NCBI GenBank assembly: GCA_964563105.1
Contig: CAZLXM010000004.1
Location: forward strand, 11,525 to 75,524
Reading direction: 5' to 3'
Source: an uncultured Bacteroidaceae bacterium
GTDB taxonomy: Bacteria > Bacteroidota > Bacteroidia > Bacteroidales > GCA-2748055
DNA length: 64,000 nt
Shown here: piece after piece, positions 12,543-49,812 of the stretch
Numbering within the stretch: the first letter of the stretch is position 1
Layout: each line of letters opens with the position of its first letter
Notes under the pieces: generated by a model
The model's input: only the letters and a program-made list of their open reading frames with translations
The model's database searches: none
Told to the model about the DNA's origin: nothing
Translations under genes and position numbers: made by a program

Positions 12543-13838
12543 TCAATACCTATTCTTCCCAAATTTTAATTTCAGCGACATTCCTCCATATTTTATCCTG
12601 AGATTGAGATTGGTAAGATCATTTAAAGGAACCTGAAAAAACGGCTCGATCAGTATGGAACCCGCCCTGCTGTATGGAAAAGCATAACCGGCCGATAAAT
12701 TAACCAGTCCGAAAAGATCCGCGCGGCTAAAAGAACCATAATTGCTTTGAACCTCTATATTTGTTAAGCGGGTTTCGGAAAAATACATGCCGGTATTTGC
12801 ATCCATTTCTGATCTTGTAAGTTCATTAACAAAATCGGCTACAAAATGCTGATTAAGATAAATCATACTTGAAGCCCCGGCAGAAATAAAAAATTCTGAA
12901 CGTTTTCTTTCTGCAATACTAAACACAACATTTATCGGCAATTCCACTGCCATCATACTTAATTGCCCGTTAAAAGAGTAAGGTATCCCGATGGTGCCGT
13001 CAACAAGTTCAATGTTATAATTTAATTCTGCCGGAACATTACCATTTCCAACTTCAAATGATTGTTTTGCAAATGCAAGGCCCGGACGGAGCGATATATT
13101 TTTTGTAAGCTGCTGATCAAGATAAAATCCCATAGATAATCCTGATCCTGCCGAATTTATGTTTCCGCTCTGTGCAAATAATCCCGAAAAACCTGCCATG
13201 AACATTCTTCCTCTGTAACGTTCTTTTTTTTCAGATGATTTCTTAGTGTACTTAAAGTCTGCTGAACTGTGATCATCATAAATCAGATCAACAGGAATTT
13301 TATTTCCTCTTAATACATCTATTGCGAGAAGATTCTCAAGTTCAGGCAGCCTGTTTTCACTTAATAACTGTTCCCTGTTAATTGGACCGGAAACGGATAT
13401 TTCCTCCTTAGCTGTAAGAACTTCAAATAAGGGGGCCTTTTCTGCAGAGATTTCCTGTATCTCCCCTGCCCTTTTTTCCTTTATATTTTCTTTATTCTCA
13501 AAGCTGTTCAGTGGAATATGTGCAGGACCAACTGCTGTCTTTTTACTTTCATCAGTATCGGACAATCTTTCATAAGGTTGATCCAATGGTTCATCCGCTG
13601 AAATAAGTTCTTGAACAGACGGTCTTATTAATATTCTGTATGCAATTAAAAACCCAAAACCAATGATCAGTAAAAATGATGCAGCCCTTGCTAATAAGAG
13701 TATAACAGATTTAGGCCTGCCAAGGGCATTCCGCTTTGCCAAAAAGGAATTCCAGCCCTCATCAGCAAGATGATCAACATTATAATTGCTGAAAACCTTG
13801 TTTACATTTTCCCTGAATCTCTCATCAAACTGTTTCAT
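12543..13838 (-). CDS. sigma-coupled membrane protein: short cytoplasmic N-terminus, one TM helix, acidic linker, C-terminal OM beta-barrel-like domain (putative anti-sigma)
   Basis: It overlaps the ECF sigma gene by 14 nt. The TM helix is SVILLLARAASFLLIIGFGFLIAY. The linker is E/K-rich. The C-terminal ~200 aa have alternating aromatic and Gly strands (FMAGFSGLFAQSG...SMGFYLDQQL...LRPGLAFAKQSF...YGGMSLKLKF) like the porin-family OMP_b-brl_2 type. Confidence 0.6.
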   Translation of the reverse strand: MKQFDERFRENVNKVFSNYNVDHLADEGWNSFLAKRNALGRPKSVILLLARAASFLLIIGFGFLIAYRILIRPSVQELISADEPLDQPYERLSDTDESKKTAVGPAHIPLNSFENKENIKEKRAGEIQEISAEKAPLFEVLTAKEEISVSGPINREQLLSENRLPELENLLAIDVLRGNKIPVDLIYDDHSSADFKYTKKSSEKKERYRGRMFMAGFSGLFAQSGNINSAGSGLSMGFYLDQQLTKNISLRPGLAFAKQSFEVGNGNVPAELNYNIELVDGTIGIPYSFNGQLSMMAVELPINVVFSIAERKRSEFFISAGASSMIYLNQHFVADFVNELTRSEMDANTGMYFSETRLTNIEVQSNYGSFSRADLFGLVNLSAGYAFPYSRAGSILIEPFFQVPLNDLTNLNLRIKYGGMSLKLKFGKNRY

Positions 13839-14421
13839 TATTCATATTCTCAGGATTAAAATTCATTTTATACAACTCACGTAACATTTTTTTTGCACGT
13901 GCAAGATTAGACCTTGAAGTAGATGTAGAAACATCAAGCATCCGGCCTATTTCCTCATGAGAATATCCTTCAATCTCATAAAGGTTAAAGGTAATCCTGT
14001 AATGCTCAGGTAAACGCTCAAACAAAGAAAGTATTTCATTTGCAGATAATTGAGAACTTATTTCAGGCTCAATGATTTCAGAAACTTCTTCCTCAATTAT
14101 CTGTAAATTGGATGAATACCTCGCATTTTTCCTGTAATTATCAATGGCAGCATTGACCAGGATTTTCCCATACCATGATTTAAAAGATTTGTTAACATCA
14201 AAATCCCTAATATTCCTGAGCACCTTCATATAACTGTCATTAACGATTTCCATAGCTTCAGTCTGGTCTAATGTATATCTTATGCATAACGACATGGCAA
14301 ATGAGAAATAACGTCTGTAGAGTAACTCCTGTGCACGGGACTCCCCTTCACGACAACGCCTGATAAGCTCCAGGTCAGATATTGTCCTTTCATCTTTTTC
14401 AGTTTTACTCATTTCTGTCAT
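13825..14421 (-). CDS. ECF-type RNA polymerase sigma-70 factor
   Basis: 198 aa. Region 2 is ELLYRRYFSFAMSLCIRY...AMEIVNDSYMKVL and region 4 is ITFNLYEIEGYSHEEIGRMLDVSTSTSRSNLARAKKMLRE. Confidence 0.9.
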   Translation of the reverse strand: MTEMSKTEKDERTISDLELIRRCREGESRAQELLYRRYFSFAMSLCIRYTLDQTEAMEIVNDSYMKVLRNIRDFDVNKSFKSWYGKILVNAAIDNYRKNARYSSNLQIIEEEVSEIIEPEISSQLSANEILSLFERLPEHYRITFNLYEIEGYSHEEIGRMLDVSTSTSRSNLARAKKMLRELYKMNFNPENMNNETV

Positions 14422-34695: not shown

Positions 34696-35112
34696 ATGAG
34701 AAAATTACAAAGAATTTTTGAAAATCCCTTAGAAATTTCATTTATTTCTCCACAAAATGAGTTTTCCCTATACTGGAATAATTTTCTTAATTCCGAAACG
34801 GGTAAAATATACCAGGTTATTCCCTGGAATGATCTTATCCGCTTGTTACATTTGAAGGAGAATCGTCAGGACCGTAAATCTTTATTCATTCTCCAGGGCA
34901 AACTTGCTTTAATGTTACTCAAATCCTACAGTAATTTATCTGATCGTAAACTTTTTGAATATCTCAACGAGAGTATTCATTATCAGATGTTTTGTGGTAT
35001 TTTTGGGGGAGCTGATCAGCCGGATGATTTTAAAATCATCAGCAAGATCAGGACAGAATTGGCTAAAAAGTTGAATATTCGTGTTTTACAGAATATTCTG
35101 ACTAAATTTTGA
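34696..35112 (+). pseudogene. IS5/IS1182-type transposase, N-terminal (DUF772-like) stub only
   Basis: In the 138-aa ORF, GKLALMLLKSYSNLSDRKLFEYLNESIHYQMFCGI matches the N-terminal domain of IS5-group transposases. The DDE domain is absent. The ORF runs into the 3' end of the converging gene. Confidence 0.6.
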
Positions 35113-36380: not shown

Positions 36381-36983
36381 TTACAGTCGGACCCTTTCTG
36401 CAAAAATAGTCAGGAATTGATTAAGAATCAATCCCCAGTTTTTAATCGGCTGTGTCCATTTTTTAGAAGTTTCCCTAAGTGCCAGATAAACCGATTTAAT
36501 AACGGCCTCGTCCGTGGGGAAAGAGAGCTTATTTTTGGTATATTTTCTTATTTTACCATTCAGGTTTTCAATCAAATTAGTTGTATAAATAATTTTTCTG
36601 ATTTCAACAGGGAAGTCAAAGAAAACGGTCAGGTCCTCCCAGTTATTTTGCCATGATTTTACAGCATAGCTGTATTTGGCATCCCACTTAAGGGCAAAAT
36701 CATTAAGAGCTGCCTCAGCCGCTTTTCTGGTGGGCGCTTCATAAATGTATCGCATGTCATTTGCATACTCTTTCTTATCTTTCCAAACAACGTAACGTGC
36801 AGAGTTTCTAATCTGGTGCATAACTCAAATCTGTGTTCCGGATTCAGGAAACATATTTTTAATTGTATCTGTAAAACCATTCAGATTATAGGTAGCTGTT
36901 ATAAGAATGTCATTTACACCGCAAGCTTTGATATCTGTCAGTATGCTCATCCAAAAAGCAGCACTCTCATTTTTATCAAGCTT
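36381..36983 (-). pseudogene. IS256-family transposase remnant (C-terminal ~200 codons, in-frame TGA)
   Basis: The translation is ...[60 protein letters not shown]...[24 protein letters not shown]. This is collinear with the IS256/mutator transposase C-terminal half. The TGA at 36825-36827 is in frame, and the N-terminal half is absent. Confidence 0.8.
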
Positions 36984-37133: not shown

Positions 37134-40100
37134 ATGTTGCTGCAAGGGGGGAAATATTATTTTAATAATTCGTTATTTTCAGGTAAGAGCACAAGAATAG
37201 TCGTAAACTATTTTTGTTTTATTCTCCTTTTGCCATTATTCACTTTTTCAATAAACCTGTCTGCCCAGACGAAAATATCAAAAGATAATTATAGCGGAAA
37301 TTTTACCGACAATAATTCCTGGCTGGACTCCTCTGCTCCTAATCCTGTTAATGTAAGTAATCCGGTAATTATTTATGGTGATATTCAGCATACCGGAAAT
37401 ATTAGCTTTAACCAGGCCCTGGATATATACGATTCACTAAGTATTACCGGAAATGTCACACTGGGCAATGATTGTAATCCTATTGTAAGATCCGGGGGAA
37501 TTTTTACGATTCAGGGAAACCTGGATCCGGTAAACAAAAGTAATCTGACAATTGAATCCGGAGCTTTCTTTACCATTTATGGTGATCTGACAATGGGAAA
37601 CCAAGGTAATCTGATCATTGAATCAGGCGGAATATTTATTATTCACGGAGATTTAGCTCTTGGAAATCAAGGAAGCCTGACAATTGAACCAGGTGCCATT
37701 TTTATTGTATATGGTAACTATACTTCTGATAATAAAACGAATGTGCTGGTGGAGGGGACCATGATCGTAACAGGTACATTCACACAAAATGGAGGGTCAA
37801 ATAACCAGGGTAGTTTCGAAATTAACGGTGGAAATGTTTATATCCTTGATCCGGTCCCTCAAATAAAACAGGGCTCTAATTATGATGATCTCAGATGTAA
37901 TCCCGATTGCGGATACGGAGGTATGGATGATCTTAAAAATGATCCGGTATGGGGATTATTCTCGGGAATAACATATGACATAAGTGCCTCAGGGCCCACA
38001 GAATTTTGTGAAGGAGATTCAGTGATTTTATCTGTTCCCGATAGCAGTACATGGTATCAGTGGTATAAAGATGCTGTAATTATTCCCGGAGCAGATTCCT
38101 TTTCATTTACCGCTCTTGAAAGCGGAGATTATCATATCAGGATATTAACTTCTGCATTCCCTGACACCATTGATATTGGTCCTGTTAACGTTACAGTAAA
38201 GGAAAATAGCATTGCACCTGTATCAGCATCAGTTGATCCTGATACTATTTGTGCCGGATCAGGAAACATTGAATTATCATATGAGGGAGGCAGCCCTGGC
38301 ACAGGCGGAACAGCACGATGGTATTCCGATCCGGGATTTACAAATCTGCTTGGCACTGGTAATAATCTTATCATCCCTGCCCCGGCAGTCTCACAAACTT
38401 ATTATGTGAGGTTTGAAGATCATTGCGGATATACAGATGCAAGATCTGTGAATGTAACTGTTCGTGATCTCCCTGTAGTTGTATTTACCGCTCCCGGTCC
38501 TGTTTGCATTGATGGTGCTGATATAACTCTTTCTTCGGGCAGTCCTGCCGGAGGAACATATTCAGGTCCCGGCATCATAGATGATACATTTCATCCCGAA
38601 ATTGCAGGTGAAGGAACACATACCCTCACATATAGCTATACAGATGGAAATGGATGTTCAAATTCTGCAGAACAAGATATAAGGGTAATTCCAATTCCCA
38701 TAGTCAGCTTTTCCGGCCTGGCCCCCTATATTGCTATAACTGATCCTCCAATATTATTAAACGCTTCCCCTGAAGGAGGAACTTTTTCCGGTCCCGGCAT
38801 CATAGGTGATACATTTCATCCCGAAATTGCAGGATTGGGCTTACATGAAATCGTCTATGAATATACTGAAGAATCTGTCTGTACAAATTCGGATACACTT
38901 TATACTGAAGTGCTGGATTATGATTTCATGCATGGTGCCATAACATTAACAGATTTTGATAACTGGTATTCAGGTGATGCAGTATATTCAACAATAGGGG
39001 CCACTGCCGACGGAAATGTTGCCTCCTGCTGGAATCAGGGCAATAACCACACCAGATGGTTTAAATTTCAGGCAGCTACAGAACAAATCAAACTGACATT
39101 CCTTACAGGTGGATCATATGGAACTGCCAGAAGGATTAATGCAGCAATATGGGAGGCTGACGGGACAACTGAAGTTAACTGTTACAGATATATCGTTGAT
39201 TATGACTCCGTAGTTGTTCAATCACCGAATTTAACACCCGGAAACTGGTATTATGTTTCCATTACAACAGCCACCGGAGCATATCGCGGATCTTTCTCCC
39301 TTCGTGTAAACGGACAGGTAGATTACGATTATTATGAAGGAGCAATAGAATTAACGGATTTCGACAACTGGTATTCAGGTGATGCTATATATTCAACAAG
39401 GGGAGCTACTGCAGACGGAAATGTCGCTTCCTGCTGGAATCAGGGTAATAGCCACACCAGATGGTTTAAATTTCAGGCAGCTACAGAACAAATCGCACTG
39501 ACATTCCTTACAGGCGGATTATACGGAACCGCCAGAAGAATTAATGCAGCAATATGGGAAGCCGACGGAACAACTGAAGTTAACTGTAACAGATATATCT
39601 CTGATTATGACTCAGTAGTTGTTCAATCACCAAATTTAACGCCCGGAAACTGGTATTATGTTTCCATTACAACCGCCACCGGAGGATATTACGGATCTTT
39701 CTCCCTGCGAGTAAACGGAAAAGTAGATTACGATTATTATGAAGGAGCGATAGAGCTGACAGATTTAAATAACTGGAGCTCTCCTGATGCAATCTACACA
39801 ACCAGAGGTGCAAGTGCTGATAAAAGTGCCGCTCCGTGCTGGAATACCAGTCCAAACTATAACAGGTGGTTCAAATTCACAGCTACAACTAATACTATCA
39901 GCATACTTGTACGTGGCGGAAACACAACGTATGGTACTCTACAGCGCATTAATGCAGCAATATGGGAGGATGATGGTTCAACAATTGTTTCATGCAATCG
40001 TTATATATCGGATAATGATGATGTTTATGTCGAATCAGTGGATCTGGTACCCGGAAATGTGTATTATTTATCTGTTGATAATAATTATGAAGGATTTCGT

Positions 40101-43100
40101 GGAAGTTTTTCACTTAATATAGATACCAGGGTAACGTATGATTACAAGGAAGGAGCTTATGAATTACAGGATCTGACAAGCTGGTGTTCTGTGGATGCTG
40201 CTTTTTCAACCCGGGGTGCAACTCCCGATCTTAATGCAGCAAGCTGCTGGAATACCGGACCGAATTATAACAGATGGTTCAAATTTGTTGCCAGTACACC
40301 AGTTATAAATATAAAGGTTAAAACTAACGGAAGTTACGGAACCATAAGACGCATAAACCTTGCTTTATGGGAAGATGACGGCATAACCCAAATTGCATGC
40401 AACAGATATGTAAGTGACAGTGACAGTGTTTCGATTGGAACCAGCCAGCTTTTACCCGGAAACACATATTATATATCTGTTGATAATAATTATGAAGGAT
40501 TTCGTGGAACATTTACCTTATGTATTGATAACCAACTGAATTACGATTATTTAGAAGGGGCAAAGGATATTACCTATTTGATTAATAATTGCTCCGAAAA
40601 TGCTGAATATACTACAGTTGGAGCTACACCTGACAGAACTGCACCTCATTGCTGGAATACATCTCCGAATTATAACCGCTGGTTCAAATTCATGGCCACC
40701 ACAAGCTCAATCAATATTCAGCTAAAAACCGGAAGTCCTTATGGAACAATCCGCAGGGCACAATTAGCTCTCTATGATCAGGACAGCACTACTGTACTCG
40801 ATTGTAACCGCTATGTAAACGATGAAGATAATATTGAAGTCTCTGCTGGTAACCTGATTCCGGGAAAATGGTATTTTATTGCTGTGGATAATAATTTCGA
40901 AGGATTCAGAGGAACTTTCTCTTTATGCCTGGATGATAAACCAAACTATGATTTTTATGAAGGTGCTATTGAATTGGGAATTATTCATGACTGGCATTCG
41001 TCAAATGCTGCATATACAACCATAGGGGCAACACCCGATAAAAGTGCTGCAAGCTGCTGGAATACCGGGCCAAATTATAACAGATGGTTCAAATTCACAG
41101 CTACAACTAACCAGATCCATATAGAAATCAGAACAGGAGGAGTTTATGGTACAATAAGAAGAGTTAATGCCGCTATCTGGGAAGCTGATGGTCTAACTGA
41201 AGTAGCCTGTAAAAGATATGTAAATGATAATGATATTGTAGAAGTTGAAGCTCTGAACCTTATACCCGGAAATACATATTATTTATCTGTTGATAATAAT
41301 TATGCGGGATTCAGGGGAACATTCTCCCTGTATATAAATGATGCAGTAGATTATGATTTTTATGAAGGTGCCAGGGATGTCAGTCACCTGATTAACTCCC
41401 AGTCTCTTCTGCAGGAATATACGACAATAGGTGCATCACCGGACAGAAATCCGGGGACATGCTGGAATACAGCACCAAATTATAATCGCTGGTTTAAATT
41501 CAGGGCAACTACTCCCGGAATAAATATAAAGGTTCTGACAGGCGGATCATATGGTAGCATTCGCAGGGTCAATATCGCACTATTCGAATCAGATGGAATT
41601 ACTCAATTGTCCTGTAATCGTTATGTAACTGATTTCGACATTGTTGAACTTGATTATGAAGGGCTGGCCCCGGGAAACTGGTATTATTTCTCTGTAGATA
41701 ATAACAATATGAGTTTTCGTGGCAGCTTTACCCTTGCCTTAAATGATGAAGTCAGCTATGACTATTATGAAGGGGCAATTGAACTTATTGACCTTCATAA
41801 CTGGTCTTCCCCCGATGCTGCTTATACTACATCCGGGGCCACACCTGATAAAATTGCTGCTTCATGCTGGAATACTGCCCCTAATTTTAATCGCTGGTTC
41901 AAGTTTACAGCCACAACACCGGTAATTAATATAGAAGTCAGAACAGGAGGAAATTATGGTACCATCCGGAGAATTAATGCTGCTCTCTGGGAAGCTGACG
42001 GAATTACCGAAGTTACGTGTAAACAATATGTTAATGAGAATGACAATGTATCTCTGGGTGCAAATACACTGACTCCCGGAAACACATATTATATATCCGT
42101 GGATAATAATAATCCAAGCTATAGAGGGACTTTCTCACTATATATTGACGATGCAATGGATTATGATTTTTATGAAGGTGCATATGAGATAACTAAGCTT
42201 AATAACTGGCAATCAGAATTGCAGGAGTTCACCACAGTAGGTGCTACTCCCGATAAAATAGCCGGAAGCTGCTGGAATGCTGGTCCTTACTATAATCGCT
42301 GGTTTAAATTTCAGGCTATTCATTCCGATGTTTCAATTCAGGTATTACGGGGAGGACCATTTGGAACAATAAGTCGGATCTATCTGGCACTATGGGACTC
42401 TGATGGAACAACAGAATTATCCTGCAAACGATATTCCGCTCAGCCAGATAATGTGTCAATTGCATATTCAGGACTCAATCCGGGCAACTGGTATTATATA
42501 TCCGTGGATAATAATCTATCGGCTCGTGGTACATTTACACTCCAGGTAAATAATATATCAGGAAATGAATATTATGCCATAGCCAATGGTAATTGGAATA
42601 TAGCTTCTACATGGTCCTTATCAGAAGGAGGGCCTCCGGCAACTTCTGCCCCACAAATTGGTGATGTTGTACATATAAAAGGATATAATGTTATTGTAAA
42701 TACAGATGAAGCATGTGCTGAATTAAATATTGAAGCTATAAACAATAATACCTCCCTTACTTTAAATGGGGGATCATTAGCAGTAAATGGTGAAATGACT
42801 TTCTCTAATAATGCTTATAATGTAAGCGGAGAAATCAGTATTTTAAACTCAGGAAGCCTTTCAATAAACGACGATTTCAATATTAACAGAGCCGGCGGTA
42901 ATAATATTTTCCGGATCACAGTTCAGGATAACTCATCTATTTCTGTTCAGAATGATCTTATCATTAAGTCTTCTTCTGGAAATATAAACAATACCGAACT
43001 TAATATTTCGGGTACTGCCGAAGTCCGGATCATGAATGACTTAATCCTGGAAAATACAGGGGGGATAAAATCAAGCATAATACTGAATAATTCTGCAAAT

Positions 43101-46100
43101 TTAAGAGTTCACAGGGATATTCTGTTTAGTAGCCCTGCACAGAACAGGCTGGAAATACAGCTAAACAATGATTCAAAACTCTTTGCCGGAAGATCTGTTC
43201 AAAGAGGGGCAACACGTTATGGAATATTAAATTCAAGGGATAATTCTACCATCGTATTTAATAGCAGTGATTACCTACAGATAATACCCGAAAATGCAGG
43301 AGGCGGAACGGATAATTTTAGCTACCGCAATATTGAGATCAACAATACAAGGATAAGCAGCCCGCAATTAAGCCTTGAAGGACCGGTATCAGTTTCAGGG
43401 ACCTTAACACTAACGAGAGGAATAATCAAAACAACAACAACTAAATTATTGAATATTGAGAGCAGCGGAACAATTTCCGGAGGATCAGCTCTGAGTTACA
43501 TTGAAGGGCCACTTAAAATCACGGGGAATTTAGCTGTAAGCTTTCCTCTTGGTAAAAATGGCCGTTATCTTCCTTTGGCGATATCAGCCCCCAATTCTGT
43601 AAATGATGCATTTATTGCTGAATATTTTGGATCTAATCCAAATCCTTATTATAATATTAACTTGCATGAAGCCTCCATTGATCATGTTTCAAATTGTGAA
43701 TACTGGACTTTGGAAAGAGTATCAGGCAACTCAGCGATAAATGTAAATATAGCCTGGGATGGTAATTGCAGTTGCATATCCGATCTTGCTAATTTAAAAG
43801 TAGCCGTATGGGATGGTTCTGAATGGAAAAACTATGGTAATGGAAATATTAACGGTTCAATTGCTTCAGGCGAGATTACAAGCTCTGATGCCATTAACCT
43901 TAATTCATGTGCAATTACTTTTGCAGACTTTTTACCTTTTGTAGATTTCACAGATCCGGGAGGGCCCTATTGTAAAACTGGTTCCTCAATACTCTTAAGC
44001 GGCTTTCCTGAAGATTCAAACGGCTGGTTCACTGGCAATGGAATTATAAATAATGGTGACGGAACAGCATTCTTTGATCCGGGTATTACAAACCCGGGCA
44101 GCCATCAGATCACATACAATTATACATCCGCTTCGGGATGCAGTAATTCTATAAGTAAATACATTACTGTAAATGCCAATCCTACAGCTACAATTATTGG
44201 AGGGGGCACTGTATGTGCCGGAGTGGAAGTTGAATTTTCAATTTATCTGACCGGGGCCCCTCCCTGGAATATTACTTATACTGACGGGGCAGACCTGTTT
44301 AATATAACTACTTCTGCCAATCCATATAAATTTAAAACTAGTACACCGGGAATATATTCTGTTACTGCAGTAACAGACAACAACGGATGTACAGGAAGTG
44401 TCCTGGGCAGCTCGGCAGACCTGCTGAACTGGCCGGTTATAGACAAGCCATTGGTTAGCATATTATCCGGGACAAGTACATTCTGTGAAGGCTCTAATGT
44501 GGTACTGACAACTCCGGATGCCAACCTGTATTATTGGAGTAATGGAGTATCCACTCAGAATGACACCATTGTTTCGCCGGGTAACTACTGGGTCAGGGTT
44601 GTGGATGAACATGGCTGCTTCAGTGGCAATTCAGATACAATTACAGTAAGCGTAATAAAAACAGCGAGGAAACCTTCAGCAATATCAGGTAATATTGCTT
44701 TATGTCAGAATAGCCCGAATACTAGCTACAGTACTTCATCCTGGTATGCCGATGTTTATAACTGGAGCCTGGAACCTTCGATAACAGGAACAATTATCGG
44801 AACCGCCTCAAATATCACTATCGACTGGGATGAAAATTATTCCGGAATAGCTAAGCTCACTGTTTATGGTTCAAATAGCGATTGTGGAGCCGGGCCTGTA
44901 TCTGACACTTTATATATTACTTTAAATGCATTGCCTGAAGAACCCGGTTTGATCAGCGGACCTCAAACAGTCTGTCAGGGACAGACAGGACTGATATATA
45001 GTATTGATCCGGTTCCGAATACAACGGGTTATATCTGGTCATTACCAGAAAATACTGTTATTTCAGGTCCTTCAAATGGCAATTCCATTACTGTTAACTT
45101 TCTTAACAATGCTGTTTCAGGTAAAATAAGCGTTCAGGCTTATAATGCTTGCGGAAGCAGTCTGAATATATCATCTCTGAGTATTGATGTACAGACCTTA
45201 TCTATTGCTGCAACAGGCATAAACCTTAACACGGATAGTATATGTCCGGGTGATTCAGTTATATTGAGTGTTGAAGGAGGATTCCCCGGAAGTGGGGCAT
45301 CATGGAAATGGTATCTGGATGATCTTTGCACAATACCTGCCGGACCTGAAGGTTTAACGCTCACTGTAAATCCTGTGGTTAATACATCTTACTGGTTAAG
45401 GGCAGAAGGTTTATGTAACAACACAGCAACAGTCAGTGCGACTGTAAATATGAAGGAAGCTCCTGTTCAAGCCGATGCTGTTAATGTTGACAGACCATCT
45501 GTTTGCTCTGCTGAGGGCACTATCGTACTATCATATTCAGGCGGATCACCGGGTACAGGCGGTGTAGCAAGATGGTATTCAGATCCCGGGCTGACTAATT
45601 TTATTGGTAGCGGAAATAATCTTAATCTTTCCGCTCCTGCAGCAACACAAACTTATTATATGAGATTTGAAGCTGATTGTGGCAATTCATCCGTAAGATC
45701 AGTTAGCCTTACTGTATTTGACCCTCCAACAGTAACATTTGACACTATCAATCCTGTAGGCCTTTATTCAGGAGATTTTATACTAAATCAGGGAAATCCC
45801 GGAGGCGGTATTTATTCCGGCAACGGAATTATAGCCGGAAATACTTTTAATCCTTCATTAGCCGGAGCCGGTACACATACTCTTACTTATACATATACTG
45901 ATGGAAATGGATGTGCAAATTCGGCAAATCGCGATATTTTAGTTTATGCCCTGGACATTCCTGTAATTACCGGAGCAACTGATGTATGCCTCATGAATGC
46001 AGAAGTATTCTCAACATCAGAAGATCCCGGATACAGCTACTCATGGACTGTAAATGGCGGAACCATTATATCAGGTGCCGGAACACATGAAATTACAGTT

Positions 46101-46247
46101 GAATTTACAAATCCGGGAAATGCTGATATCAGCGTAACAATAACAAAAGATGCTTTCTCTGAAACCTCAGACGTATATGATGTAACAGTATATGATTTAC
46201 ATACATTACCTGATATTGAATCAGATAACAAATTAAATCGCAGATGA
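37134..46247 (+). CDS. giant (3037-aa) secreted multidomain cell-surface protein (adhesin-like)
   Basis: A single 9114-nt ORF with a signal peptide (FCFILLLPLFTFSINLSAQ). It contains 22-aa beta-helix-type repeats, Cys-containing Ig-like modules, nine ~135-aa repeats, a second beta-helix-like region (GNWNIASTWS...) and further Ig-like modules. I could recognise no T9SS CTD at the C-terminus. Confidence 0.85.
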   Translation: MLLQGGKYYFNNSLFSGKSTRIVVNYFCFILLLPLFTFSINLSAQTKISKDNYSGNFTDNNSWLDSSAPNPVNVSNPVIIYGDIQHTGNISFNQALDIYDSLSITGNVTLGNDCNPIVRSGGIFTIQGNLDPVNKSNLTIESGAFFTIYGDLTMGNQGNLIIESGGIFIIHGDLALGNQGSLTIEPGAIFIVYGNYTSDNKTNVLVEGTMIVTGTFTQNGGSNNQGSFEINGGNVYILDPVPQIKQGSNYDDLRCNPDCGYGGMDDLKNDPVWGLFSGITYDISASGPTEFCEGDSVILSVPDSSTWYQWYKDAVIIPGADSFSFTALESGDYHIRILTSAFPDTIDIGPVNVTVKENSIAPVSASVDPDTICAGSGNIELSYEGGSPGTGGTARWYSDPGFTNLLGTGNNLIIPAPAVSQTYYVRFEDHCGYTDARSVNVTVRDLPVVVFTAPGPVCIDGADITLSSGSPAGGTYSGPGIIDDTFHPEIAGEGTHTLTYSYTDGNGCSNSAEQDIRVIPIPIVSFSGLAPYIAITDPPILLNASPEGGTFSGPGIIGDTFHPEIAGLGLHEIVYEYTEESVCTNSDTLYTEVLDYDFMHGAITLTDFDNWYSGDAVYSTIGATADGNVASCWNQGNNHTRWFKFQAATEQIKLTFLTGGSYGTARRINAAIWEADGTTEVNCYRYIVDYDSVVVQSPNLTPGNWYYVSITTATGAYRGSFSLRVNGQVDYDYYEGAIELTDFDNWYSGDAIYSTRGATADGNVASCWNQGNSHTRWFKFQAATEQIALTFLTGGLYGTARRINAAIWEADGTTEVNCNRYISDYDSVVVQSPNLTPGNWYYVSITTATGGYYGSFSLRVNGKVDYDYYEGAIELTDLNNWSSPDAIYTTRGASADKSAAPCWNTSPNYNRWFKFTATTNTISILVRGGNTTYGTLQRINAAIWEDDGSTIVSCNRYISDNDDVYVESVDLVPGNVYYLSVDNNYEGFRGSFSLNIDTRVTYDYKEGAYELQDLTSWCSVDAAFSTRGATPDLNAASCWNTGPNYNRWFKFVASTPVINIKVKTNGSYGTIRRINLALWEDDGITQIACNRYVSDSDSVSIGTSQLLPGNTYYISVDNNYEGFRGTFTLCIDNQLNYDYLEGAKDITYLINNCSENAEYTTVGATPDRTAPHCWNTSPNYNRWFKFMATTSSINIQLKTGSPYGTIRRAQLALYDQDSTTVLDCNRYVNDEDNIEVSAGNLIPGKWYFIAVDNNFEGFRGTFSLCLDDKPNYDFYEGAIELGIIHDWHSSNAAYTTIGATPDKSAASCWNTGPNYNRWFKFTATTNQIHIEIRTGGVYGTIRRVNAAIWEADGLTEVACKRYVNDNDIVEVEALNLIPGNTYYLSVDNNYAGFRGTFSLYINDAVDYDFYEGARDVSHLINSQSLLQEYTTIGASPDRNPGTCWNTAPNYNRWFKFRATTPGINIKVLTGGSYGSIRRVNIALFESDGITQLSCNRYVTDFDIVELDYEGLAPGNWYYFSVDNNNMSFRGSFTLALNDEVSYDYYEGAIELIDLHNWSSPDAAYTTSGATPDKIAASCWNTAPNFNRWFKFTATTPVINIEVRTGGNYGTIRRINAALWEADGITEVTCKQYVNENDNVSLGANTLTPGNTYYISVDNNNPSYRGTFSLYIDDAMDYDFYEGAYEITKLNNWQSELQEFTTVGATPDKIAGSCWNAGPYYNRWFKFQAIHSDVSIQVLRGGPFGTISRIYLALWDSDGTTELSCKRYSAQPDNVSIAYSGLNPGNWYYISVDNNLSARGTFTLQVNNISGNEYYAIANGNWNIASTWSLSEGGPPATSAPQIGDVVHIKGYNVIVNTDEACAELNIEAINNNTSLTLNGGSLAVNGEMTFSNNAYNVSGEISILNSGSLSINDDFNINRAGGNNIFRITVQDNSSISVQNDLIIKSSSGNINNTELNISGTAEVRIMNDLILENTGGIKSSIILNNSANLRVHRDILFSSPAQNRLEIQLNNDSKLFAGRSVQRGATRYGILNSRDNSTIVFNSSDYLQIIPENAGGGTDNFSYRNIEINNTRISSPQLSLEGPVSVSGTLTLTRGIIKTTTTKLLNIESSGTISGGSALSYIEGPLKITGNLAVSFPLGKNGRYLPLAISAPNSVNDAFIAEYFGSNPNPYYNINLHEASIDHVSNCEYWTLERVSGNSAINVNIAWDGNCSCISDLANLKVAVWDGSEWKNYGNGNINGSIASGEITSSDAINLNSCAITFADFLPFVDFTDPGGPYCKTGSSILLSGFPEDSNGWFTGNGIINNGDGTAFFDPGITNPGSHQITYNYTSASGCSNSISKYITVNANPTATIIGGGTVCAGVEVEFSIYLTGAPPWNITYTDGADLFNITTSANPYKFKTSTPGIYSVTAVTDNNGCTGSVLGSSADLLNWPVIDKPLVSILSGTSTFCEGSNVVLTTPDANLYYWSNGVSTQNDTIVSPGNYWVRVVDEHGCFSGNSDTITVSVIKTARKPSAISGNIALCQNSPNTSYSTSSWYADVYNWSLEPSITGTIIGTASNITIDWDENYSGIAKLTVYGSNSDCGAGPVSDTLYITLNALPEEPGLISGPQTVCQGQTGLIYSIDPVPNTTGYIWSLPENTVISGPSNGNSITVNFLNNAVSGKISVQAYNACGSSLNISSLSIDVQTLSIAATGINLNTDSICPGDSVILSVEGGFPGSGASWKWYLDDLCTIPAGPEGLTLTVNPVVNTSYWLRAEGLCNNTATVSATVNMKEAPVQADAVNVDRPSVCSAEGTIVLSYSGGSPGTGGVARWYSDPGLTNFIGSGNNLNLSAPAATQTYYMRFEADCGNSSVRSVSLTVFDPPTVTFDTINPVGLYSGDFILNQGNPGGGIYSGNGIIAGNTFNPSLAGAGTHTLTYTYTDGNGCANSANRDILVYALDIPVITGATDVCLMNAEVFSTSEDPGYSYSWTVNGGTIISGAGTHEITVEFTNPGNADISVTITKDAFSETSDVYDVTVYDLHTLPDIESDNKLNRR
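38916..42563 (+). repeat. nine in-frame tandem repeats of 405 bp (one of 408 bp) inside the giant gene
   Basis: Units start at 38916, 39321, 39726, 40134, 40539, 40944, 41349, 41754 and 42159. Each encodes YD(Y/F)YEGA...CWN..PNYNRWFKF...YGT(I/A)RR...W(E/D).DG...C(N/K)RY...PGN.YY(I/L)SVDNN...FRG(T/S)F(S/T)L. Confidence 0.9.
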
Positions 46248-46293
46248 AATAAAGATTAAATAAATTAAAAAAACAATAATTATTAACAATTAA

Positions 46294-47103
46294 ATGATGA
46301 ACAAAATGAAAACAAATTCAGTACTTAGAACTTTTGCAATTCTTGCTTTGATTACAGCAGGTTTTTCAAACTCTCTCTTTGCACAGTTTATTGGCAACAC
46401 TGCCAATGATCAGCTTCCAATCGTTGAAGAACGAAAAGGTGGAACAACAACTTATTCTGTTCCCGGTCCTGCATCAGATGAATACACATGGGCTGTTACC
46501 GGTGCGGTAAGTGTCTCGCCTGCACCATCTTCAGGTGATGGTTCTGTCGGGAATCCATTTGTTTTAAATTATACCGCCGGATTAACTTCGATTCAGGTAC
46601 AATGGCCGGCTGATAATGATACTATAACTTCAATGTCCGGAAATGTATCGGTACAACAAAGAGTATCAAGCGGATCCATTGCCTGTCCAAGTATTATTCA
46701 ATCCTGGGACGTTAATCTCTGGAGCCGTGCAACAGCAAGCATAATAACTGATGACTTCGAAATCTGTTCCGGAGATGATGTTGGGGGAAACATTGAAGTG
46801 AGATTAACTGGCGCCCCCAATTTCGATTTTAGCTATACTATTACCGGCCTTAACGGGGTTACGAGTGCACCGGTAAATGTTACAGGTGTGACCAATGCAA
46901 CAGCAACTATTTCACTTCCAAATAATCTCGTTAATACAAGCTCAAATCAGGATCAAACTTATGTTATTACACTGACCCGGATGAATGATGATTTTACTGG
47001 AAATGGAACGATATTAAACGATTCATTTACAATTACAGTTCATCCGACAGTTCAAACCGGTCCGATCGAAAGTAACAGATCTTTGGAAAGAAGGAATCCT
47101 TAA
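46294..47103 (+). CDS. secreted 269-aa protein with Ig-like modules related to those of the giant protein
   Basis: The signal peptide is FAILALITAGFSNSLFAQ. The modules YSVPGPASDEYTWAVTGAVSV...IQVQWPADND...CPS and FEICSGDDVGGNIEVRLTGAPNFDFSYTITG resemble modules in the giant ORF (CAGVEVEFSIYLTGAPPWNITYTDG). Confidence 0.6.
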   Translation: MMNKMKTNSVLRTFAILALITAGFSNSLFAQFIGNTANDQLPIVEERKGGTTTYSVPGPASDEYTWAVTGAVSVSPAPSSGDGSVGNPFVLNYTAGLTSIQVQWPADNDTITSMSGNVSVQQRVSSGSIACPSIIQSWDVNLWSRATASIITDDFEICSGDDVGGNIEVRLTGAPNFDFSYTITGLNGVTSAPVNVTGVTNATATISLPNNLVNTSSNQDQTYVITLTRMNDDFTGNGTILNDSFTITVHPTVQTGPIESNRSLERRNP

Positions 47104-47788
47104 TTGTGTGAATATTTTGATTTAACAACTTATTATGAACAAAAAATGCCGGTTTAATATGAAATTACAAGTTTAAGATCTTTAGTTTCAAGGGATATTT
47201 ATAGAAATAAGCGAACCGGCATTTGATTAAATATTGTTGAATGAATCCTCAACTCTTATGAAATCTCCATGTACGTCAGTGAAAAAGATGAAGAAGCTGA
47301 AAGCAGGTTATTGGCAGGCTCAACTTTCAAAAGCAGGCTATATGAAGGTTTCATTAGAAAATATGAATTAATAATGGAATAACAAATTTACTTTCTGATA
47401 AAACTCCCGGTACTATCGTTCACAACAAGAAAGTGAAAATAATTGGGGGTTCAATCAGAACAATGTAATTAACAATGATATTAACAAAAATCTTTTCTGA
47501 TGAAGACGGGTAAAAAAATAATTAATCATTGACCAATAATTATTAGCGGATATATAAATATACTGGTAAAAGAATGAGAATATTCATCAGAAATAAATTA
47601 TGTTAAATCAATGGAATAATTATTTAAATAAATATGTTTCATAAATTAAAGTAGAATAAAGGTTAAAAACTAAGTGCTGAAAATATTTAAATTATTCTCT
47701 TTCCCTCCTGGTTGTGATCCTGCTTTTTGGCAGGGTCACTATCCCGGATGGAAAAAGAGGATTCAGCCACGAGAATAATGTAAATGTA

Positions 47789-48790
47789 ATGAGATATTAC
47801 AACTACATATGGTTTATACTGATCCTGGCAGGATTATCTTTCAATTCTCCCGCCCAATATATTACTATTGTATGTCCGGGAGATACCGGATCCATTTTGA
47901 AGGTAAAAGGATCGGAAGGATCAACCTTTGTATGGACAGTGAAAGGAGGTACAATTATCCAAAATTATAATGACTCGGTAAAAGTTAACTGGGGTCACAA
48001 TGCAGGTGAATTTGAAATAACTGTACAGGAATTCTCAAAATATAATTGCCCTGCCATTCCGGTATCCGGTTTAGTACTGGTATCTGCCCCGGCCTTTAAT
48101 CTTGGTGCTGATCTGGACCTTTGTCATGGAGATTCAATTACAATTCTGGCCCCGGATAATTATTTTTCCTATTTATGGCATAATGGAAGTACAGGACTGT
48201 CATATACGGCATATACCCAGGAAAGAGTAATCCTGGAAGTCACTGATGAATATGGATGTAAACGATCAGATGATCTATATGTTACCTTACGTCCGCTGCC
48301 GGTAATAAATCTTGCTGATGAAGCGATAATTTGCGGAAATGAATCACTGATCCTGGATGCAGGTGGAGATGGTATTTTCTTCAAATGGTCAACAGGTGAA
48401 AATACAAGAGAAATAACTGTATATGAAGGAGAAAAAACTATCTGGGTTATTGTAAAAGATGCTTATGATTGTGAAAACTCAGATACAATACAAATCCTTG
48501 CCTGTTCCAGCAATATATATTTTAAGGATATGCCAACCGCATTCACCCCGAATGATGATGGAGTAAATGATGTATGGAGGATACCTCAACTTCAGGCCTT
48601 TCCTGAATCAGTTGTGGAAATTTTTGATCGTTGGGGAAACCTTCTCTTCCGTTCCGCACCAGGTTATCCAAATCCCTGGGATGGTACTTATAAAGGAAAA
48701 AGAATGCCCATGGATTCATATTATTTTGTTATTATCTTAAATAGTGATGGCATGGACCCAATAACTGGTACAGTAACATTAATAAGATGA
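47789..48790 (+). CDS. T9SS type B (gliding-motility-associated) C-terminal sorting-domain protein
   Basis: ATG at 47789 gives the signal MRYYNYIWFILILAGLSFNSPAQ. The C-terminus PTAFTPNDDGVNDVWRIPQL...VEIFDRWGNLLFRS...WDGTYKGKRMPMDSYYFVIIL...GTVTLIR matches the TIGR04131/CHU_C consensus. Confidence 0.85.
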   Translation: MRYYNYIWFILILAGLSFNSPAQYITIVCPGDTGSILKVKGSEGSTFVWTVKGGTIIQNYNDSVKVNWGHNAGEFEITVQEFSKYNCPAIPVSGLVLVSAPAFNLGADLDLCHGDSITILAPDNYFSYLWHNGSTGLSYTAYTQERVILEVTDEYGCKRSDDLYVTLRPLPVINLADEAIICGNESLILDAGGDGIFFKWSTGENTREITVYEGEKTIWVIVKDAYDCENSDTIQILACSSNIYFKDMPTAFTPNDDGVNDVWRIPQLQAFPESVVEIFDRWGNLLFRSAPGYPNPWDGTYKGKRMPMDSYYFVIILNSDGMDPITGTVTLIR

Positions 48791-49812
48791 CACATTCATT
48801 CAAATATTCAGCAAATAAACTGCATTTGACAGGGTATCTGGTTTTAATTAAACTTTGGATTATCTTGTTGGCGGCTTCTTTTCATTTAAATTTATTTGCA
48901 CAACAGGTGCCATTATACAGCCAGTATATGATGAATGGTTTCCTTTTAAATCCTGCTGTCGCCGGAAGTGAAGGTTACACTGCTATCAATCTTATATCAA
49001 GGCAGCAGTGGCTTGGATTGAAAAATGCCCCGTCCACACATGCCCTGAGTGCTCAGACAAGGATAATGAAGGATGCTTATGTTTCAAGGAGCTCTTCTGT
49101 TAAAAGAAGGCAACGACTAAGTTCAAGGAGTGGTAAAGTAGGATTGGGGGGATATATATTTACTGACCGAAATGGGCCGGTTCTAAGAAATGGTCTACAA
49201 TTATCTTATGCATACCATATAAGGATGCAACAACAACAGTTATCTTTTGGATTATCAGGTATTTTTTACCAGTTCTCCCTTGATAAAGAAAAAATAAGAT
49301 TCGAAGAAGAGGATTTATTTTATGAACATGCAAACAAAACTATATTTATTCCGGATGCAAATACCGGTGTCTATTATTCCGGTCCTGATTTTTTTGCCGG
49401 ATTTTCTGCCAGCCAGCTCCTTGAATCGGGGATACGATTTGGTGATAAAGGTTATGCCGAATATAAAATGAAAAGATATTATTATTTAACTGCAGGATAC
49501 GATTTTGCAATCAATGAGTATCTTACACTGGCTCCTTCCTTTCTGTTAAAAACAAATGATAATTTTTTATGGCAAACTGATATTAGTACCAAGCTAATTT
49601 TTAATGACGAATATTGGGGAGGAATTTCATATCGTACAGGCCGTTCATTGATTTTTATGGGAGGAATAAAAATAGATAAATATATATTCGGGTATTCTTT
49701 CGATTATACACTTAGCAGTATCATGAAACATAGTTATGGTTCACATGAATTTATCGCAGCATTACTCCTGGGGGACAACACCAGGAAATATAGATGGCTT
49801 AACAGATATTAA
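48787..49812 (+). CDS. PorP/SprF-family T9SS membrane protein
   Basis: 341 aa. AQQVPLYSQYMMNGFLLNPAVAGSEGYTAINLISRQQWLGLKNAPST is the signature N-terminus of the PorP/SprF family. Its start overlaps the upstream stop (ATGA). Confidence 0.85.
   Translation: MTHSFKYSANKLHLTGYLVLIKLWIILLAASFHLNLFAQQVPLYSQYMMNGFLLNPAVAGSEGYTAINLISRQQWLGLKNAPSTHALSAQTRIMKDAYVSRSSSVKRRQRLSSRSGKVGLGGYIFTDRNGPVLRNGLQLSYAYHIRMQQQQLSFGLSGIFYQFSLDKEKIRFEEEDLFYEHANKTIFIPDANTGVYYSGPDFFAGFSASQLLESGIRFGDKGYAEYKMKRYYYLTAGYDFAINEYLTLAPSFLLKTNDNFLWQTDISTKLIFNDEYWGGISYRTGRSLIFMGGIKIDKYIFGYSFDYTLSSIMKHSYGSHEFIAALLLGDNTRKYRWLNRY

Follow-up and report, generated by a model that had tools for sequence, protein, structure and literature searches.

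Must every type IX secretion system (T9SS) substrate carry its own C-terminal sorting domain (CTD), or can a protein be exported on the CTD of a separately encoded partner? This question is raised by a four-gene locus in a 64,000-nucleotide stretch of contig CAZLXM010000004.1 from an uncultured Bacteroidaceae bacterium (the whole stretch is called the window here). To our knowledge, T9SS substrates are all thought to carry their own folded CTD, and genome-wide prediction of T9SS cargo depends on finding that domain. At this locus, a giant protein and a protein of 269 amino acids (aa), both without a CTD, are encoded upstream of a small protein with a type B CTD and an outer-membrane protein of the PorP/SprF family. 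From comparison with related loci, we give about an even chance to the reading that the locus encodes a conserved split type B T9SS adhesin, in which cargo proteins with a short C-terminal tail dock on a separately encoded carrier or anchor. The features on which the analysis draws are as follows (window coordinates; ORF, open reading frame).

37134 to 46247, + strand: giant CTD-less protein, 3037 aa (ORF)
38919 to 42572, + strand: nine tandem 135-aa repeats of the giant, aa 596 to 1813, with a WFKF motif every 135 to 136 residues
45954 to 46196, + strand: last PKD_6-like domain of the giant, aa 2941 to 3021, which aligns to internal repeats of other giants
46197 to 46244, + strand: C-terminal tail of the giant, LHTLPDIESDNKLNRR-COOH, 16 aa, motif P.I.EI.S.NKL.RR
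46294 to 47103, + strand: 269-aa CTD-less protein (ORF)
47044 to 47100, + strand: C-terminal tail of the 269-aa protein, PTVQTGPIESNRSLERRNP-COOH, consensus PT.ETG.I.S...LTRR
47104 to 47788, no strand: AT-rich noncoding spacer that separates the 269-aa and CTD genes, 685 bp, 29% GC
47789 to 48790, + strand: small protein with a type B CTD, 333 aa, proposed as carrier or anchor (ORF and family alignment)
48787 to 49812, + strand: PorP/SprF-family outer-membrane protein, 341 aa (TIGR03519, PF11751)

We compared the four proteins with profile models of known sorting domains and shuttles. Two of the four are bona fide members of known groups: the small protein is a type B CTD protein, and the 341-aa protein belongs to the PorP/SprF family. 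TIGR04131, the NCBIfam model of the type B CTD, matched the small protein at 79.2 bits (cutoff, 35; profile positions 2 to 85 of 85), as did the Pfam model PF13585 (CHU_C) at 68.4 bits (cutoff, 27); it was the sole match to these two models among the four proteins. The 341-aa protein matched TIGR03519 (PorP/SprF) at 247.8 bits (cutoff, 90.55; profile positions 4 to 287 of 292) and PF11751 at 241 bits. Both assignments bear out the first-pass annotation, which had named a type B CTD protein followed by a PorP/SprF gene. No NCBIfam model matched the giant or the 269-aa protein at an E value of ≤1, and the type A CTD models (TIGR04183 and PF18962, Por_Secre_tail) matched none of the four proteins at the same threshold. 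That these two proteins lack a CTD, as had been proposed from the sequence, therefore stood in both NCBIfam and Pfam searches for type A and type B domains. A cryptic CTD was also considered and rejected for each: the last 97 aa of the giant align to internal PKD_6 repeats of other giants, and the 269-aa protein, with no CTD match in NCBIfam or Pfam, ends in coil after its second immunoglobulin (Ig)-like domain in the AlphaFold 2 (AF2) model. Neither protein qualifies as type A or type B cargo; both may act as cargo in trans.

The layout of the locus was largely as first described. All four genes are co-directional, on the + strand within 37134 to 49812. The third ORF is open from 47714, and family alignment favors the ATG at 47789, which yields a protein of 333 aa starting MRYYNYIW; the small protein thus kept its type B CTD and lost its earlier length of 334 aa. 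The CTD and PorP/SprF genes overlap by 4 bp. The description of a four-gene module held for direction and order, and is weakened as a single unit by the 685-bp gap before the CTD gene, with which the four genes are not obviously one operon. In related loci this spacer spans ∼10 to 400 bp (from ORF coordinates), so that the 685 bp of the window is unusually long. By eye, on inspection of the sequences, all four proteins start with signal peptides of the signal peptidase I type, and a hydrophobic h-region near the N terminus is conserved in the families of the 269-aa and small CTD proteins. Predicted cleavage sites in the giant, 269-aa, and small CTD proteins read ...LFAQ↓F, ...SPAQ↓Y, and ...LSAQ↓T (in no particular order), and no lipobox Cys was found at the predicted sites of these three proteins.

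The arrangement is not confined to the window. A locus scan of one genome per GTDB species, seeded with 15 sequences of the 269-aa family alone, returned 23 species-level loci, all in metagenome-assembled genomes (MAGs) of uncultured Bacteroidales/Bacteroidota. The order giant, 269-aa family protein, small CTD protein (∼335 aa), PorP/SprF was kept in 23 of 23, so the proposal of a conserved module stands after a survey of gene order. A large Ig-domain-rich ORF lay upstream in every one of the 23, frameshift-fragmented in several long-read MAGs and edge-truncated on short contigs, and independent metagenome contigs had the same gene order. The small CTD proteins form a tight family of 333 to 337 aa. 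In one lineage (loci L003 and L004), the giant, 269-aa, and small CTD genes are present and an adjacent PorP gene is absent. The module includes two conserved families and two C-terminal motifs that are unannotated; on genomics alone, these merit family models. As a separate observation, the small CTD gene of L003 and L004 (12605 to 20813) is followed by another giant of >5,700 aa with FG-GAP, DUF2341, and HYR domains and a CHU_C domain of its own, placing split and unsplit type B giants side by side.

The first-pass annotation held that the giant and the 269-aa protein end without anything recognizable as a type A or type B CTD. They do have a conserved C-terminal tail in common. At ∼21 of the 23 loci tabulated, the giant directly upstream of the 269-aa gene ended in P.I.EI.S.NKL.RR; the giant of the window ends ...YDLHTLPDIESDNKLNRR, and others end ...YDQPEIFEIQSNNKLNRR, ...HDQPTISEISSNNKLLRR, and ...NATPEMGEIQSGSKLNRR. 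The giants are not orthologous along their whole length and differ in Pfam content, with Laminin_G_3, DUF8202, and HYR domains in L003, SprB and Ig_7 domains in L001, and PKD_6 domains in the window. A loose regular expression for the giant tail matched 21 of the 642 ORFs (≥100 aa) in the fetched loci. Twenty of these 21 matches, a few of them duplicate copies of a locus, were the gene immediately upstream of a 269-aa family gene; since the matches are nearly confined to that position, the tail is not a product of chance. When the last 97 aa of the giant were searched exhaustively with HMMER against 1.84 billion cluster representatives, PKD_6 repeats dominated the matches. Among the top 150 PKD_6-rich giants (cluster representatives), the tail was found on the giant of the window only, and those with a recognizable complete C terminus ended like type A or type B CTDs. 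A profile of the last 50 aa of the giants returned one short match from an index of 5.8 billion proteins, a word index unsuited to a short motif. Giants were also seen fragmented into many overlapping ORFs across near-identical Ig_7 repeats at L001, L002, L009, L017, L018, and L021, all long-read MAGs; the breaks probably stem from misassembly at homopolymers or repeats and not from biology. L002 is a second assembly with a 269-aa protein identical to that of L001, in which the RR stop of the giant was lost by frameshift.

On the 269-aa protein, the tail could be followed across a family. We found 114 homologues of ∼265 aa at 33 to 75% identity, all unnamed or "hypothetical" and all from Bacteroidales/Bacteroidota metagenomes, with the ending ...ITVHPT.ETG.I.S...LTRR. 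In an alignment of 106 sequences, I254, L260, and R262 of the tail were invariant and T251, G252, S256, and R263 were at least 93% conserved; the mean frequency of the top residue was 0.71 in the tail versus 0.62 to 0.65 in the folded domains. The AF2 model built from this alignment (mean predicted local distance difference test [pLDDT] score, 91.4) has Ig-like sandwiches at residues 33 to 139 and 143 to 246, with residues 247 to 265 as coil outside the fold and pLDDT falling from 84 to 68. Conserved yet unstructured in the model, the 269-aa tail behaves like a linear interaction motif. A role of the giant's tail in completing the first domain of the 269-aa protein was considered and is unlikely, as AF2 gives that domain a long first strand of its own.

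Relatives in which the locus is not split suggest where the tail came from. Longer homologues of the small CTD protein (P0186, P0198, and P0207, at loci L028 to L030) are C-terminal fragments of large ORFs that are open to the contig start. A PorP gene follows P0186 and P0207 (L028 and L030); the ORF after P0198 (L029) is unannotated, with no family on record. These unsplit modules consist of three Ig-like domains and a type B CTD and are 48 to 66% identical to the small CTD proteins at three split loci (L001, L025, and L027). P0198 spans the break: over residues 7 to 230 it is 51% identical to the C terminus of the L027 giant, up to 7 residues short of the stop codon of that giant, and its residues 242 to 549 match the small CTD proteins (L001, L025, and L027) at 50 to 54% identity from a conserved Cys onward. 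Downstream of L028, the synteny is that of the split locus L001 (PorP, Pterin_4a, and TonB-dependent receptor). Together, this colinearity and synteny indicate that the small protein is a type B giant's C-terminal module that has become detached. In the unsplit giants, by comparison, the module is continuous with the giant, with no stop codon, 269-aa gene, signal peptide, or RR-ended tail, and the junction reads ...TPNTGNIETITNQGQVPAGGVCAGD... or ...PAPGITSITGKTNLCGGD... where the split locus has separate ORFs. Fuller junctions are ...KNATPNTGNIETITNQGQVPAGGVCAGD... in P0198 and ...NPAPGITSITGKTNLCGGD... in P0186, and the L027 giant ends ...KNATPEMGEIQSGSKLNRR-stop. By alignment, the tail corresponds in evolutionary terms to the linker and first (A) strand of the module's first Ig-like domain, termed D1.

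If the tail corresponds to the start of D1, is that start missing from the small protein? Its domains are a signal peptide (aa 1 to 23), a truncated PKD_6-like D1 (aa 24 to 98), two Ig-like domains, and the CTD (∼aa 247 to 333). We calibrated the PKD_6 profile in an internal domain of the giant, where P2601 falls at profile position 2 and the Cys is residue 2614, placing the Cys at ∼position 15. In the small protein, the Pfam PKD_6 match begins two residues ahead of the invariant Cys29, at profile position 13. Its predicted mature N terminus (AQ↓YITIVC) corresponds to ∼position 10, six residues before the conserved Cys, and positions 1 to 9 are absent. Starting so close to the Cys, the stand-alone D1 is missing the front half of its first strand. 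Among complete stand-alone family members whose N termini were inspected, the Cys lies ∼3 to 7 residues after the predicted cleavage site. In the AF2 model of the small CTD protein (mean pLDDT, 90), the first strand of D1 comprises residues 26 to 28 only. The tail of the giants covers ∼PKD_6 positions 2 to 16, including the missing front half of D1.

A second class of tail accompanies a distant clade of small CTD proteins, which have mature N termini such as Q.LPVAC.GS..RYGV or GTVCAE and are followed by PorP. The CTD-less proteins that precede this clade carry ...TGPIYHI.N... at five loci (L031, L032, L033, L034, and L037), with the endings ...PETGPQYHIENAWGN, ...PVTGPIYHIDNTWGL, ...PTTGPGYHIKNTWGE, ...PETGPIYHIPNNYAY, and ...PTTGPIFHIDDAWAD. 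The bearers are giants of 3222 and 2544 aa, one protein of 1156 aa, and others of ∼290 to 370 aa. At L032, the 1156-aa protein is on the opposite strand; tail-bearing cargo thus need not be co-directional. Both cargo proteins of a locus carry the same tail class, and the tail class varies with the clade to which the small CTD protein belongs, a covariation that fits cognate recognition and also simple coinheritance. A metagenome scan with the distant small CTD proteins found mostly ordinary unsplit type B giants and two further split modules only. The ∼290- to 370-aa proteins of this class also have an internal ...ISRK.DY... motif in addition to the C-terminal ...TGPIYHI.N.W.. tail.

Taking these comparisons together, we propose a route by which the CTD-less proteins would reach the surface. 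The Sec pathway would first bring all of the proteins into the periplasm. There, the tail of the giant, or alternatively that of the 269-aa protein, would dock on the truncated D1 of the small CTD protein, restoring a linear bead chain equivalent to the unsplit protein. The complex would then be exported by the T9SS by means of the type B CTD of the carrier and its cognate PorP/SprF shuttle, and the CTD would remain on the PorP-like barrel, keeping the complex at the cell surface. The last two steps follow what has been described for type B CTD proteins, whose secretion requires cognate PorP/SprF shuttles (PMC12618676) and which stay uncleaved on PorP-like surface proteins (PMC9143113). Tail-to-D1 binding, coexport, and surface display are what we infer from the homology of the parts. 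In its specific form, that the T9SS exports and anchors CTD-less proteins in trans through docking tails of ∼15 residues that complete D1 of a carrier held on PorP/SprF, the proposal is plausible at somewhat less than even probability. Such trans export would be a modular "one anchor, exchangeable cargo" system with at least two tail classes (...I.S...L.RR and ...TGPIYHI.N...).

Two of the three explanations offered in the first-pass annotation come together here. The idea that the small CTD protein is a carrier or anchor gains indirect support from the covalent module of the unsplit relatives and from the truncated D1. For the idea that the partners use a new sorting signal, a conserved tail motif does exist, and the comparisons suggest that it is a docking motif derived from an Ig-domain strand and not an independent secretion signal. 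The two are probably two halves of one mechanism.

Several observations weigh against this mechanism. The two different tails of a locus, on the giant and on the 269-aa protein, would compete for one acceptor domain. The tail and the N terminus of the anchor overlap by ∼7 PKD_6 positions, with no clean complement of a split domain. The extreme C terminus is not strictly fixed: in a few tails it is longer by one or two residues or reads RK, RN, or a single R. Transcription of the cargo genes may be separate from that of the carrier and PorP genes, as the 685-bp gap suggests, and the covariation of tail class with anchor clade could reflect shared ancestry alone. Lastly, full-text literature searches for piggyback or hitchhiker export turned up no report of noncovalent complexes exported by the T9SS.

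An alternative, which we consider unlikely, is that the tail serves on its own as a new signal for sorting or attachment, independent of a CTD and read directly by the PorP/SprF-like barrel or another T9SS component, and that the small CTD protein is a third ordinary cargo of the same PorP. A conserved, unstructured linear motif at the extreme C terminus of two otherwise unrelated proteins, a PorP gene that is nearly always adjacent, and a tail class that differs between clades, as a cognate shuttle would predict, are all in keeping with this idea. However, the known T9SS signals are folded domains of ∼80 to 100 aa, as stated for Flavobacterium johnsoniae (PMC12618676), and the tail has its homologue in the junction that leads covalently into the small-protein module of unsplit relatives, which makes the module the likelier partner. 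In addition, L003 and L004 keep the three upstream genes without an adjacent PorP.

Equally improbable in our estimate is that the CTD-less proteins are not T9SS cargo at all, being periplasmic, as the third first-pass explanation had it, or reaching the surface by another route, with the tail serving some other interaction or persisting as a relic of gene fission. The lack of a detectable CTD on either protein is what this explanation predicts, and the 685-bp gap suggests a possibly separate transcription unit. Against it, a type A or type B CTD is almost always present in relatives on giants composed of PKD_6, Ig_7, HYR, and Laminin_G domains, which makes such giants typical surface proteins of the T9SS, and synteny with the CTD protein and PorP is strict (23 of 23 genomes). 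Nor would a relic exceed the folded domains in conservation across 33 to 75% identity or be common to giants with nonhomologous bodies.

Less probable still is a donor-strand filament like the type V pili of Bacteroidales, in which the small CTD protein would be the base and the giant the tip, and 269-aa subunits would polymerize: the N-terminal strand of each would be removed by proteolysis at an invariant EERK site, and its tail would be donated to the next subunit. An anchor, a small subunit, and a large tip protein mirror what we take to be the type V pilus layout. Moreover, the invariant Arg43 of EER(K)G ends the long first strand of the 269-aa family (residues 33 to 43 in AF2), and the tail end ...L.RR is loosely like the end of that strand, ...IEERK. 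Type V pilins are lipoproteins, however, and there is no lipoprotein signal on the 269-aa, giant, or small CTD proteins. Cleavage at EERK is speculative, the tail bears a weak likeness to the first strand, AF2 predicts with high confidence that the 269-aa protein has a complete first domain, and some distant modules are without a giant (L033). EER(K)G itself, nearly invariant in the family at the end of the first beta-strand (residues 41 to 45 of P0001; window, ∼46426 to 46440), sits where ordinary PKD_6 domains carry the "vC.G" Cys motif, and it might be cut by a protease or pair by charge with the RR of the tails.

That the locus is a pseudogene or assembly artifact, in which mutation or misassembly has broken one giant type B CTD gene, is the least credible explanation by far and was rejected: transposase fragments do lie just upstream and giants are frameshifted at some related long-read MAG loci, but the same break point recurs in >23 species, every one of the downstream proteins begins with a start codon and signal peptide of its own, a whole conserved 269-aa gene lies between the pieces, and the stand-alone proteins fall into tight length classes (∼265 aa and 333 to 337 aa).

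How does the proposed split adhesin compare with known systems? As in SprB/SprF of F. johnsoniae and PG1035-PorP-PorE of Porphyromonas gingivalis, a type B CTD gene directly precedes a PorP/SprF gene, and by analogy the CTD is expected to stay on the PorP-like barrel (PMC9143113, PMC12618676). The giant, like SprB-type cargo, is a repetitive, Ig-domain-rich, adhesin-like protein. Unlike in SprB/SprF, the CTD is on a separate 333-aa protein, with a short conserved tail at the end of the giant and of an additional 269-aa protein; no such in-trans CTD arrangement is described in the literature searched. The closest solved structure and sequence match was the grappling-hook protein GhpA of Aureispira (PDB 9flp and related entries; profile E value, 1.9e-185; Foldseek E value, 7e-14), a chain of Ig beads that, in contrast to the proteins here, is a single polypeptide of 5898 aa with its own type B CTD. 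Foldseek searches with the AF2 models of both the 269-aa and small CTD proteins found generic tandem-Ig chains and GhpA only. In concept, the proposal resembles chaperone-usher and Bacteroidales type V pili, in which an incomplete Ig-like domain is completed by the terminal strand of a partner. In contrast to those systems, there is no lipoprotein signal, usher, or chaperone at the locus, export would use the T9SS, and strand donation is deduced solely from homology and the truncated D1. In hitchhiker export by the Tat pathway or peroxisomal import, a signal-less protein likewise rides a signal-bearing partner (PMC9251779); the machinery and compartment differ from those of the T9SS.

If the proposal is true, the T9SS moves noncovalent complexes, and CTD-based surveys overlook some of the largest surface proteins of these Bacteroidales. 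From comparative genomics of uncultured bacteria, the finding challenges the rule of one CTD per T9SS substrate, and the arrangement, if it works as proposed, would offer a directly testable handle on the coupling of type B CTD, PorP-like shuttle, and passenger. A short portable tail with a small carrier would also be a possible tool for displaying foreign proteins on Bacteroidota surfaces.

The body of the giant has features of its own. From the N to the C terminus, a signal peptide is followed by a G-rich, beta-helix-like region, the nine 135-aa repeats, and Cys-containing Ig-like domains of the PKD_6/Ig_7 type (Pfam PKD_6, 91 bits; Ig_7, 67 bits). Short G-rich repeats (SGGIFTIQGNL, SGAFFTIYGDL, SGGIFIIHGDL, and PGAIFIVYGNY) occupy ∼aa 100 to 230 (window, 37134 to 38000); with no Pfam match, this region looks from its sequence like a beta-helix or a polymorphic-membrane-protein-type repeat. 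The 135-aa repeats are near-perfect copies of the pattern YDYYEGA...CWN...RWFKF...RRINAAIWE.DG...C.RY...PGN.YY.SVDNN...RG.F.L, and the near identity of the first two suggests recent expansion. Pfam returned nothing significant over them; judged by eye, they resemble a beta-sandwich of the PPC (pre-peptidase) type.

Noncoding and flanking sequences gave few further features. The spacer at 47104 to 47788 held no ORF of note and no Rfam family, no TAnnTTTG box was found in the three intergenic regions of the module, and a sigma-70 and terminator scan for noncoding signals was uninformative. The spacer does hold a 10-bp inverted repeat, AATGCCGGTT at 47145 to 47154 and AACCGGCATT at 47214 to 47223, with a loop of 59 nucleotides. 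The module is flanked by ordinary chromosomal genes. Directly upstream of the giant gene are two transposase fragments (34696 to 35112, + strand, and 36381 to 36821, − strand), one of them a DUF772 domain and the other the C-terminal third of a transposase of the Mutator family, which hints at past mobile-element activity at the locus. Elsewhere in the window, and unrelated to the module, an extracytoplasmic function (ECF) sigma factor gene (13825 to 14421, − strand) overlaps the gene downstream of it (12543 to 13838, − strand), whose 431-aa product has an outer-membrane beta-barrel domain.

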